Shown here piece by piece: positions 226 to 64,000 of a stretch of 64,000 nt of DNA. A model generated the notes under the pieces. The model saw nothing but the letters and a program-made list of their open reading frames with translations. It was not told where the DNA came from and made no database searches. The DNA is from Eledone cirrhosa. Lineage: Eukaryota. The number at the start of each line of letters is the position of its first letter. Within the stretch, counting starts at the first letter, position 1. The DNA lies in the NCBI GenBank assembly GCA_964016885.1, contig OZ024743.1, positions 239,568,001 to 239,632,000 on the forward strand, written 5' to 3'. Both the position numbers and the translations under genes were made by a program.

Positions 226-255
226 CACACACACACACATACATACACATGTACA

Positions 256-48221: not shown

Positions 48222-48554
48222 TTATATATATATATATATATATAGATAGATAGATAGATAGATAGATATAGTTATAGATATATATACATATATATGTCTC
48301 GGTGTATGTGTGTAGGTGTGGGGGCGTATGTGCGTTCGCGTAGTCTGTATGTTTGTGTATATCAACCGAAAAGATGATCTTAATGGAAACTAAAGTTGGC
48401 CACGCTGAGAGGATTTGAGGGCCGAATATTACTCAGGATTTTGTTAGAAAAGAGGAGAAAAGTATCGGATGATGGTCCTTTATCAGTTGGAGGAACGTTA
48501 AGAAAAAGAAATGGTTAGAAGAGATAAAAAGTTTTCATCAGGATGGGGGAGATG

Positions 48555-49297
48555 GGCGGGTAAGCAGTGTCGTGTGATGGGTGGGTAAACAGTCCGGTGT
48601 TGTGAGAGGGTAAGCAGTCCGGTGTGATGGGTGGGTAAGCAGTCCGGTGTTATGGGTGGGTAAGCAGTGTCGTGTGATGGGTGGGTAAGCAGTCCGGTGT
48701 TGTGAGAGGGTAAGCTGTCCGGTGTGATGGGTGGGTAAGCAGTCCTGTGTTGTGGGTGGGTAAGCAGTGTCGTGTGATGAGTGGGTAAGCAGTCCGGTGT
48801 TGTGAGAGGGTAAGCTGTCCGGTGTGATGGGTGGGTAAGCAGTCCTGTGTTGTGGGTGGGTAAGCAGTGTCGTGTGATGAGTGGGTAAGCAGTCCGGTGT
48901 TGTGAGAGGGTAAGCAGTCCGGTGCGATGGGCTGGTAAGCAGTCCGGTGTTATGGGTGGGTAAGCAGTCCTGTGTTACGGGTGGGTAAGCAGTCCGGTGT
49001 TATGGGTGGGTAAGCAGTCCGGTGTTATGTGTGGGTAAGCAGTCCAGTGCTATGGGTGGGTAAGCAGTGTCGTGTGAAGGGTGGGTAAGCAGTCTGGTGT
49101 TATGGGTGGGTAAGCAGGCCAGTGCGATGGGCTGGTAAGCAGTCCGGTGTGATGGGTGGGTAAGCAGTCCAGTGTTATGGGTGGGTAAGCAGTGTCGTGT
49201 CATGGGTGGGTAAGCAGTCCGGTGTTATGGGTGGGTAAGCAGGCCGGTGCGATGGGCTGGTAAACAGTCCGGTGTTATGGGTGGGTAAGCAGTCCGG
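48555..49297. repeat. G-rich 25-bp minisatellite, about 30 units
   Basis: Consensus GGGTGGGTAAGCAGTCCGGTGTTAT. Confidence 0.95.
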
Positions 49298-49617
49298 TGG
49301 TGGTGCGTCTGGATCTAACATCTGTACTGATATGTACATGTGGATTGTGTGTATTTTGTCAGTGTGCAATTTTTTTTCTTTTTGTTTGTTTAGTCATTTG
49401 TGTGTGTGTTTGATGGAGCGGAGTGTGTGTTTGGTGGAGTGGTGTGTGTCTTTGGTGGAGTGGTGTGTGCGTGTTTGATGGGGTGGTGTGTGTGTTTGAT
49501 GGGGTGGTGTGTGTTTGATGGGGTGGTGTGTATTTTGTTCGTGGTGTTGTGTATGTGGCTGGGAGCTCGATAGGAAGACAAATAATTAACCAGATAACTA
49601 AATAAAGAAACAGCAAA

Positions 49618-58884: not shown

Positions 58885-59166
58885 TATAGTATAAAAAAAA
58901 CGAAAAATCAGTGATGCATCTGGACTCAGTTTATTGCGTGTTACAATTGTTTCGCCGGCAGATAGCTCGAGACATGATCACTGTATGGATATGGCTGATT
59001 CTACAGCTGCAGGTTGCTTCGGACGCGGGCAGTTCGTTCTGAGCAAATTTTCTCACAGCCAGATCCATACAGTGATCATGTCTCGAGCTACCTGCTGGCG
59101 AAACAATTGTAACACGCAATAAACTGAGTCCAGATGCATCACTGATTTTTCATTTTTTTATACTAT
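58885..59166. mobile_element. Family K head-to-head palindrome with the HHR 3' half in each arm
   Basis: About 110-bp arms; GAAA-CAATTGT-A at 59100-59111 and its mirror; CUGANGA half absent. Confidence 0.8.
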
Positions 59167-61279: not shown

Positions 61280-61713
61280 TTTCGTTTGTGAATTTTCTTA
61301 GCAAGATTCTTTATCTGAAAACGGGTGTTGAAACCGATATTGTCATGCTTTGGGAGGGTCATGTTGCCAATAAGAAACACACGCACCAGTTGCTTTCACT
61401 CCAATTTATTATATATTAAATTTATAAATTTCCGGTTGGTTGATTCCATAACCGGACGGTTGTTCATATATTGTCAAAGTTCTTTCGTCAGACATTATGT
61501 GACCCCTTCAGTGACTGGGGATTCTTTTCTTTGTTGTGTGCCTCTCCTTTGTTCTGTCCTACGCCATCTTGTTTTTGTGTGTGTTGTGTGCTTAGTTTGC
61601 TTATGTGTTACATCCGAGTGTCTGTGTGTGTTTTTATATGTTTATTTATTTGTTTATTTACATGTTACTTGTTGGTTGTTTGTTCTATGTGTGTGTGTGT
61701 TTTCATTTTGTCT
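61280..61713 (-). mobile_element. 3' UTR/pLTR of the adjacent PLE (family C) with decayed HHR at about 61473-61515
   Basis: Aligns with 22381-22690; core reads CTGAAGG. Confidence 0.85.
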
Positions 61714-62320
61714 TTAATTGTAAGTTGTGATGTTGCTGTTCCATTCATGTTTTCTATTTAATTTTGGTTGGAGTTAATTTATGTTTATTGCCTCTGTGAT
61801 TTGTCTAAACATTGCATCTTTTCTGTGTGTAGATTCTATTTTTATTTCTATGTTCTCTAATTTGCCCTTATGTTCTATTTTAGCATGTTGGTGAAGTACT
61901 GATGATTCTTTTTTATCTTGAAATTCTCGCCAGTGTTCATTTAACCGTGCTCCTATACTACGAGCTGTCTCACCTATGTACACTATATTCTTATCTTTAC
62001 ATTGTCCTTCAGTACATCTTATGCTATATACTACATTTCTAGTTTTACAGTTAAGATGGGGGCTTAGTTTACAGATTATGCATTTCTTATCTATATAGGG
62101 AGGTCTTTGAAAAGGGTATGTATTGCTAATACGTGTTTTTATGGAGGTACCTGGTCTTTCTACTATCTTAATATTAAGTTTATATTTATCTAGGGCCCTT
62201 CTAAATTTGTAAGCTAATTCACCTCTAGGGGTTGTATTGACGAACATTACACTCTGGTATTTATTGCTATCCTACCATGAGTTTATTCTATTAACCTTAT
62301 TTCTAGTTCTTTCTATTCTC
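61714..62320 (-). pseudogene. 5'-truncated Penelope-like element ORF: linker plus GIY-YIG endonuclease (tentatively Nematis-like)
   Basis: W*..SVMFVNTTPRGEL..KIVERPG..CIIC..C..NVVYSIRC..C..VYIGETARS..RLNEH..SVLHQH..H..RQITEAININ*LQPKLNRKHEW; two in-frame stops. Confidence 0.9.
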
Positions 62321-62400
62321 TATATATATAAAGGATAAACTTGAACCGTTAAGGTATCATTCCTGGCTATGTCAATATTTATAGAACAAACTTCGTATTT

Positions 62401-62453
62401 TTATCTGATGAGTGCGTACCAAAGTGTTGGTACCCTTGAAATATATATAATAG
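62401..62453 (+). ncRNA. Minimal type I HHR (family A copy 62335-62497)
   Basis: TTAT-CTGATGA-GTGCGTACCAA..TTGGTACCCTT-GAAA-TATATAT-A-ATAG. Confidence 0.7.
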
Positions 62454-62552: not shown

Positions 62553-62558
<6 letters not shown>

Positions 62559-62634
62559 CGTATTTAAGAAAGCCACAACAATGCAGAGGGAAATTTCCCT
62601 CTGCATTGTTGTGGCTTTCTTAAATACGTATTTT
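62553..62634. repeat. Perfect 82-bp palindrome in a (TA)n-flanked insert
   Basis: AAAATACGTATTTAAGAAAGCCACAACAATGCAGAGGGAAA|TTTCCCTCTGCATTGTTGTGGCTTTCTTAAATACGTATTTT. Confidence 0.92.
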
Positions 62635-62672: not shown

Positions 62673-62705
<33 letters not shown>

Positions 62706-62712
<7 letters not shown>

Positions 62713-64000
62713 GAAACACACAGATACACGCGGACACACACATATATACATGAATGCATCCGCACCCAACTGTGAGTTAAGGGTGCCAACTTCACCGATG
62801 TTGCTCAATGAATAACCGGGACAGACCAATTCAGTTGAACTAGACTGAACCAGTATCAGAGTTAAAAATACATTATGAAGAGAGAAGAAACATTTAGATA
62901 TAATTAGTAATAAAATGTATCATACCTAAACTGCTCCTAAATTCCTCGACTACGTAGTTTCGTGGGGTAAACAAAAACAATATATCATAAAGATATAGAG
63001 TCCCTGCGAGGTCTGCCGACTTATCAAGAGGATGCCTCATTTTACTAGTCTCAAGAACGCGTCTACACGACGTGAAAAAGAATCCCAAAAGGCGGAGGGG
63101 GAGATAGTCACGCGATATAACGGTCGAGAAACAGAGCTAAGCCTCTTATAACCACGAAGAAAATACCACAGAGGCGAAGGGGGTATTCATATCGAGGCCG
63201 CAGAAGAGGTGGTGAAGAAGGCTAGAAGTATGAGTAATGGAAGCTTTCCAGTTGTCCCCACACCTCAAAGATTGCTCGACCAGAGGGAGTTATTAACAAT
63301 ATATTTAGAAACACACAGATACACGCGGACACACACATATATACATGAATGCATCCGCACCCAACTGTGAGTTAAGGGTGCCAACTTCACCGATGTTGCT
63401 CAATGAATAACCGGGACAGACCAATTCAGTTGAACTAGACTGAACCAGTATCAGAGTTAAAAATACATTATGAAGAGAGAAGAAACATTTAGATATAATT
63501 AGTAATAAAATGTATCATACCTAAACTGTTCCTAAATTCCTCGACTACGTAGTTTCGTGGCATAAACAAAAACAATATATCATAAAGATATAGAGTCCCT
63601 GCGAGGTCTGCCGACTTATCAAGAGGATACCTCATTTTACTAGTCTCAAGAACGCGTCATCGGTGAAGTTGGCACCCTTAACTCACAGTTGGGTGCGGAT
63701 GCATTCATGTATATATGTGTGTGTCCGCGTGTATCTGTGTGTTTCTAAATATATTGTTAATAACTCCCTCTGGTCGAGCAATCTTTGAGGTGTGGGGACA
63801 ACTGGAAAGCTTCCATTACTCATACTTCTAGCCTTCTTCACCACCTCTTCTGCGGCCTTGATATGAATACCCCCTCCGCCTCTGTGGTATTTTCTTCGTG
63901 GTTATAAGAGGCTTAGCTCTGTTTCTCGACCGTTATATCGCGTGACTATCTCCCCCTCCGCCTTTTGGGATTCTTTCTCACGTCGTGTAGACGCGTTCTT
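62706..64000. mobile_element. Retrozyme-like insert M: about 1.6 tandem copies of a 595-bp HHR unit (minus) joined head-to-head to a permuted plus-strand copy
   Basis: TAGAAACACACAGAT at 62711 and 63306; inversion junction at 63658; runs off the window. Confidence 0.8.
62943..63032 (-). ncRNA. Type I HHR with U3-A8 core (second copy at 63538-63627)
   Basis: TCCTC-TTGATAA-GTCGGCA...TGCCAC (copy 2)-GAAA-CTACGTAGT-C-GAGGA; GUC triplet; palindromic stem III. Confidence 0.78.

Follow-up and report, generated by a model that had tools for sequence, protein, structure and literature searches.

The insert at the end of the window (the whole 64,000-nt stretch of Eledone cirrhosa DNA analysed in the present study) is probably a protein-free retrozyme copy with one predicted hammerhead ribozyme per unit, pasted in by a Penelope-type reverse transcriptase (RT) that copied one small RNA circle from two start sites. 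Judged from its sequence by genomic criteria, the feature is a non-LTR retrozyme and ordinary in kind: it combines tandem hammerhead units, non-coding nature, dispersal at high copy number, co-occurrence with Penelope-like elements (PLEs) and a strongly self-paired monomer with a fold z of -5.65, and the layout of its loci has no LTR, PBS or PPT organisation. Its apparent variant features are a PLE-type ribozyme, inverted insertions that keep strictly to two ends and have a tail of 165 nt, and allele patterns indicating one circular template.

The window locus and its repeat family

A direct repeat of period 595 was found near the window end, with 355 of 359 overlapping bases identical, and comprises 1.6 unit copies on the minus strand followed by a strand switch at 63658 (Table 1; unit position 1 is the base after the predicted GUC cut). 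A sequence-only reading of the stretch had proposed this arrangement, namely about 1.6 near-identical tandem copies that begin at (TA)n and change strand at 63658, and it is borne out in all three respects; the left arm has its 3' end, the long end (+244), at 62704 in (TA)n, and the inverted arm is 99% complementary over 343 nt. A third hammerhead core had been expected on the plus strand at about 64026, and in the extended sequence the right arm carries it exactly at 64026, followed by the short end (+80) at 64185 and then (TA)n. The site at about 63745-63765, taken in the same reading for the unit junction, is instead one of two fixed insertion ends. Read as a circle, the unit has longest ATG frames of 48 and 46 aa, in agreement with the earlier statement that it holds no credible open reading frame. 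The middle, cut-to-cut unit shows 6 differences from the neighbouring units; the window locus is thus not the clean product of a single monomer, and a mixed template or gene conversion is needed here.

Table 1 Features of the retrozyme locus and other repeats in the window
Feature	Position	Strand	Description
(TA)n target tract	62676..62709	.	Left end of insert, seen in the sequence
Left arm	62704..63658	-	1.6 units in ribozyme sense; unit positions 480-595, 1-595, 1-244
Hammerhead motif 1	62943-63032	-	Type I, U3-A8 core; predicted cut between 62948 and 62947
Complete cut-to-cut monomer	62948..63542	-	595 nt; release by two self-cleavages predicted
Hammerhead motif 2	63538-63627	-	Family-typical sequence; predicted cut between 63543 and 63542
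Head-to-head junction of arms	63658	.	5' ends at unit positions 480 and 148; 1-nt overlap
Right arm (locus L021)	63658..64000	+	Unit positions 148-490 within the window
5'-truncated PLE	61280-62271	-	Old, very abundant family; ends in (TA)n near 61280
GIY-YIG endonuclease frame of this PLE	61774-62271
Hammerhead-like motif of this PLE	~61470-61520		In the 3' region
Minimal PLE-type hammerhead	~62400-62450	+	Palindromic stem III
Minimal PLE-type hammerheads	cores 4968, 40841, 41074	-	Palindromic stem III
Near-perfect 80-bp palindrome	62553-62633		Between (TA)n tracts
104-bp inverted pair	58894-59159
Minisatellite	48552-49299		25-bp unit, ~30 copies, 100-bp higher-order period

In the predicted hammerhead, stem I is 5 bp long, the core reads UUGAUAA/GAAA/UC and is of the U3-A8 type, and the cut site is GUC. 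Stem II carries a single bulged base and is extended to a great length, and the 10 nt of stem III form a perfect palindrome; in motif 1 a 2-base change weakens stem II. One type I motif per copy, of U3-A8 type and on the minus strand, is what the sequence-only reading had called, and both motifs were recovered. An Rfam search of the sequence gave no match at the gathering score and no hammerhead family at E<=10, and the isolated motif (90-111 nt) folds no better than shuffles (z of 0.12, -0.57 and -1.41), so that the prediction rests on core letters, pairing and conservation. In 17 distinct ribozyme copies from two families 95.4% of cells pair, versus 31-53% for slid partners; covariation among these copies does not exceed the shuffle control, because the ribozyme stems hardly vary. 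PLE ribozymes have been described as combining U3-A8 with a short helix I and with a helix II that is long and leaves one base of its stem unpaired (PMC4209133; here and below, cited papers are represented by the parts of their text that were available). A search for a relative of the ribozyme with a short stem II returned 0 matches. Among frog elements, cleavage was reported for only one of nine tested in one study (10.64898/2026.07.22.740005). The minimal PLE-type hammerheads of Table 1 belong to other abundant repeats, and that at ~62400-62450, seen by eye, recurs in locus L231. Other type I hammerheads lie in L231, L203 and L227/L228, two of them with a very long stem II and a palindromic stem III; L231 also holds a further tandem repeat of ~490-510 bp carrying a hammerhead, which is a possible additional retrozyme.

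A total of 7,197 exact matches to a 22-nt ribozyme motif were found in the 3.0-Gb genome (control, 0), along with 2,399 occurrences of the exact junction between the short end and (TA)n and at least 733 of the long-end junction, for which only a subset pattern was counted. These counts uphold the earlier suggestion of a tandem family dispersed genome-wide. The genome was sampled at 141 loci, comprising 30 loci among the best DNA matches (sample A), 48 consecutive ribozyme-anchored loci on contig 1 (sample B), and 63 loci anchored on the +80 end with no selection on the cut site (sample C). Two loci (L098, L367b) were left out as duplicates and one (L085) was re-called as simple, because its 'inverted' part belonged to a sister family. 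The full cut-to-cut unit is present in 82 of the 141 loci, and loci differ by 3.06% and 3.69%. On these sequence data the family is a young, dispersed, non-coding 595-nt repeat. Its unit, first thought to be larger than known metazoan units, falls within the reported size range of animal retrozymes of 51-972 bp (10.64898/2026.07.22.740005).

Insertion ends and the RNA template

The 3' ends of the arms lie at two sites inside (TA)n, at +80 (short) or +244..252 (long) counted from the predicted cut, and the 5' ends are scattered. The proposal that copies start at varying permutation points therefore holds for the 5' ends and fails for the 3' ends. Inverted insertions paired a short with a long end in 75 of 81 cases (17/20 in sample A, 23/25 in B and 35/36 in C), with no like pairs and six odd ends; in samples A and B all 40 two-site pairs were unlike, which has P ~1e-12 if ends were drawn independently at even odds. 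Simple insertions in sample B ended at +80 (12), at +244..247 (10) or elsewhere (1). Other TA-like spots within the unit were not used as regular ends. Head-to-head joints had a 0-7 bp overlap in 31 of 45 cases; one joint (L151:5706-5764) contains ~5 copies of an 11-bp unit stretch, as if a telomerase-like RT had copied it repeatedly. Copies adjoin (TA)n across the sampled loci, as expected beforehand, with (TA)n on both flanks in 26/30 and 41/49 loci, so that any target-site duplication is hidden.

Two fixed unlike ends, inversion and a (TA)n target amount to a PLE footprint. The two fixed ends with the inverted architecture are the Penelope two-site 'tail' signature, and mobilisation by a PLE is very highly probable. 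A tail at one end only and an inverted, 5'-truncated partner are hallmarks of PLEs (PMC8557442; PMC3846280), although the retrozyme tail of ~165 nt is far above the published 30-40 bp. Purified PLE protein cuts and extends both strands of AT-rich DNA and uses two internal RNA start sites downstream of the hammerhead in vitro, and a dimer is predicted (PMC11167929).

Divergence is 0.58% and 0.69% between the units of an arm, and 0.48% and 0.58% between the arms of one insertion. Rare alleles were found in a single unit (233), in all covering units of a locus (58) or in some units only (9); 35 of the 58 span both arms (17 loci), and this allele sharing shows that both arms usually derive from one template. 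In sample C all 120 crossings of the cut site were gap-free (111 exact, 9 with substitutions), and 2 of 99 arms stopped at the cut. Arms longer than one unit made up 104 of 222 (median arm 561 nt, longest 4,383 nt), each of them running back into the unit itself, and long arrays of different haplotypes are homogeneous. A single circle read repeatedly explains the one haplotype per insertion, the gap-free crossings and the multi-unit arms together. These genomic signs agree with the circular or multimeric template proposed in the sequence-only reading, and we consider a circular template likely. Alternating arrays were rejected as proof of a dimer circle: the alternation is clean in L363, and in L022 it is imperfect and broken at the first unit.

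A sister family and a candidate partner

A sister retrozyme family (L192-L220) has units of 580-590 nt that are, over their full length, 74% identical to the 595-nt unit, with the same ribozyme core, ends at +81 and ~+247, and 1,829 first-look candidates; intermediate subfamilies (85-92%) are represented by L123, L132, L157, L291 and L362. A query that favoured long ends returned 29 sister loci beyond its own, 25 of them distinct and 19 inverted, the latter with short and long ends in 15 cases, two long ends in two and odd ends in two. Identity between the families rises from 74% overall to 89% in the last 35 unit positions, which form the 3' half of the ribozyme. Whole units of both families fold strongly in the ribozyme sense only (z about -5.7 and -4.9, against -0.45 and -0.63 antisense). 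Among the pairs of family 1 that are changed in the sister, 41/65 still pair (null 27/73; 0/2000 shuffles), with 11 double changes (null 4.8, P 0.0045); the reciprocal test kept 40/54 pairs, with 7 double changes that were not significant (P 0.067). This conserved, strand-specific pairing is an RNA-level constraint.

As the source of the enzyme, PLE family A is our best, if tentative, candidate partner. It has a 5-kb tandem unit and, in L221, a 938-aa frame with RT and GIY-YIG relatives and a CX4CXXC linker, and this linker fits the description of the Neptune/Nematis type (PMC8557442). Its copies are 92-98% alike and give ~10,850 ribozyme matches. Family A ends at +78 and +143 past its own predicted cut, with long and short ends in 8 of 10 inverted pairs, in (TA)n. 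Both it and the retrozyme have a U3-A8 core and a stem III that is palindromic; their short ends carry a pyrimidine tract and their long ends TTTCTA. Its terminal region showed no similarity to the unit above chance (scores of 63 and 81, within shuffle maxima of 89.5 and 90), in a comparison with possible autonomous partners that took in only ~70 PLE-anchored loci. L124 (4620-4750) holds a head-to-head join between a retrozyme arm and an end of family A, and run X6 has a loose end of similar appearance. In L030 (4152-4370) and L333 the retrozyme is fused to members of two further PLE families, so that the chimeras involve three different coding families. The two head-to-head chimeras have two long ends, like two of the sister-family exceptions. 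Many family A copies match only query residues 19-180 in a 409-aa frame, which suggests a distinct sub-lineage or an L221-specific break.

Mechanism, rival explanations and known systems

The copying of an RNA circle by a PLE is a route long proposed for animal retrozymes, and for the 595-nt family it may have run as follows. A locus with two ribozymes would be transcribed; self-cleavage at GUC would free a monomer, which a host ligase would close into a circle, by analogy with other animal retrozymes (PMC7229834). A PLE RT/GIY-YIG complex, probably a dimer, would then cut both strands of the (TA)n, the target being observed and the enzyme putative. One DNA end would prime at +80 and the other at ~+245, the positions found at the loci, presumably through a few-base TA match. 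Both syntheses would pass the cut site of the putative circle, leaving the scar-free crossings and arrays of up to seven units seen in the sequence, and would stop variably. The two cDNA ends would finally join head to head, mostly via the 0-7 shared bases seen at the joints, or, if one end only were extended, a simple array would result. The second synthesis would have to displace the first cDNA; PLE RTs are not known to have RNase H.

In its fullest form, this mechanism would make the insertions fossils of two-headed rolling-circle reverse transcription: an RT dimer on one closed, ribozyme-made circle would prime at two structure-defined sites 165 nt apart, with both subunits circling, and the circle would have taken over this machinery through mimicry of the end motifs and the fold of its partner, of which it would not be a recognisable piece. 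We judge this fullest form evenly balanced between right and wrong. If true, it would be direct evidence, from a genome, that animal retrozymes transpose by way of viroid-like RNA circles. As to how animal retrozymes return to DNA, the family carries the footprint of the helper at thousands of young loci, and it provides precise start sites (+80, +245) together with a target and a candidate family for the enzyme, which makes the mobilisation model testable. Since the shared alleles trace both arms, in most cases, to a single template, it also bears on the reason why PLEs insert as inverted pairs that are tailed on one side only.

The same PLE machinery might instead have copied a linear template, either an uncut multimer transcribed from a donor array of uniform units or a cleaved monomer held together by stem I, so that the RT could jump from end to end; the ribozyme would then be secondary. 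Uncut RNA is indeed the main in vitro substrate of the anole PLE, for which the ribozyme is not needed (PMC11167929), a few loci have mixed units (the window locus, the imperfect alternation in L022 and the 9 partial alleles), and the chimeras suggest switches to other RNAs. Truncation of arms at the 5' end to a median of 561 nt should, however, shorten arrays on a linear template, yet arms reach the kilobase lengths given above; the homogeneity of long arrays in different haplotypes, the absence of gaps at every cut-site crossing of sample C and the conservation of the ribozyme across 26% divergence also argue against a linear template, which we regard as unlikely. Local tandem amplification of a stranded terminal repeat, the satellite model proposed in 10.64898/2026.07.22.740005, or misassembly is the least probable account and a very improbable origin of the family. 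DNA-level or assembly duplication does occur, as the alternation in L022 and two duplicated loci (L095/L098, L367) show. Against local amplification or misassembly, thousands of dispersed loci with differing flanks have this one pair of ends, the arms of inverted insertions agree in haplotype, and both types of (TA)n junction are also present as loose ends in the independent run X1. Since the fixed-end insertions are dispersed, local amplification is largely refuted as a general route, and it may lengthen a few arrays.

A further reading takes the unit for a mere terminal repeat (pLTR) of a coding PLE and the insert for an ordinary copy of its tail end, truncated as such copies are. The insert does resemble PLEs in its ends, its inversion, its target and its type of ribozyme, a PLE fragment with an endonuclease frame lies 430 bp from the retrozyme on the same strand (Table 1), and in L333 a PLE reading frame of 2.1 kb stands directly upstream of the array. 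The adjacent fragment was nevertheless rejected as parent: it belongs to an older family (33,258 candidates), is separated from the retrozyme by (TA)n and other repeats, and resembles the unit only in microsatellite-like bases. The sampled part of the genome yielded no coding parent for the unit, with no recurring coding continuation in the 141 loci, although a rare parent may exist; the absence of a regular link to a coding PLE agrees with the expectation of the sequence-only reading. An RT and GIY-YIG frame between terminal repeats is absent from the retrozyme loci, the sole and irregular chimera being L333, which joins mid-frame to mid-unit. Among 392 PLE-related proteins and frames the best match to the units had an E of 0.008 over 34 aa, and 50 GIY-YIG-anchored loci showed no real similarity to the unit, save for one independent retrozyme insertion. 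Every arm exceeding one unit re-enters the unit itself. The terminal-repeat reading is very improbable. The 80-bp palindrome and the 104-bp inverted pair listed in Table 1 are probably very short inverted PLE insertions.

Metazoan non-LTR retrozymes of coral, mussel and axolotl (PMC7229834) and of vertebrates (10.64898/2026.07.22.740005) are like the 595-nt family in having tandem units that do not code for protein and bear a single type I hammerhead, a GC content <50%, strong self-pairing, thousands of copies and co-occurrence with PLEs. The 595-nt family, with its putative RNA circle and its cephalopod host, differs in its PLE-type ribozyme (U3-A8, short stem I, bulged long stem II) and in its two fixed 3' ends, short and long inversion and (TA)n target, which are absent from the available text of those papers. 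Endonuclease-positive PLEs (Poseidon PAc, PMC11167929; Neptune/Nematis and Naiad, PMC8557442; rotifer Penelopes, PMC3846280) resemble it in the one-end tail, the inverted 5'-truncated partner and the AT-rich or microsatellite target. The first of the two initiation sites of Poseidon PAc lies, by subtraction, at ~+85 to +92, versus +80 in the 595-nt unit (PMC11167929), and the U3-A8 variant is known from Schistosoma PLEs (PMC4209133). The non-autonomous MRC1 of Chlamys is likewise a PLE derivative with multicopy head-to-tail insertions, but it shares its 3' sequence with an autonomous partner and belongs to a clade without canonical hammerheads, the 595-nt unit being the opposite on both counts (PMC8557442). 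Compared with PLEs, the unit has no reading frame, the whole element is the repeating unit, the tail is longer, and there is no sequence homology to any PLE family sampled. In L1 twin priming, head-to-head inversions arise from two priming events at one break; in the retrozyme, by contrast, both arms cover the same sequence, often for longer than a unit, and the position of the second site does not vary.

Among the top matches listed in literature searches that covered few subscription papers, none reported a retrozyme from a cephalopod or described paired ends of the PLE type on a retrozyme. The available text of the vertebrate survey does not mention a tail or molluscs (10.64898/2026.07.22.740005), and that of an octopus repeat annotation mentions no ribozyme or retrozyme (PMC13282606). 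According to a 2020 review, retrozyme repeats have no conserved motif pointing to a helper element (PMC7761336); the 2026 preprint offers co-occurrence, phylogeny and a local-amplification scenario (10.64898/2026.07.22.740005).

Part of the unit is present in 20 of 24 listed sequencing runs, from 17 organisms, with no RNA run on record among those holding it; run X12 covers the whole unit. Near-identical units occur in runs X4, X5, X6, X8 and X13 of other organisms, in X4 as a single 621-nt contig (591+30). Outside the source organism the examined runs show single or few unit contigs, and raw reads of organism D (X22, ~1 in 100 read) gave low-complexity matches only, while X6 of the same study has the unit. 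Because of these few contigs and the lack of the unit in X22, we do not claim horizontal transfer, and cross-contamination is probable.

Elsewhere in the genome, molluscan haemocyanin gene clusters with approximately seven functional units each were located at C1:173.74-173.91 Mb, at C26:21.93-22.02 Mb and on C27, and these genes make a cephalopod host likely. The best match of a single unit was to 1js8 (653 bits), ahead of 6r83 (563) and 3j32 (397), which we take to be octopus, squid and gastropod proteins, respectively, and seven functional units fit octopods.
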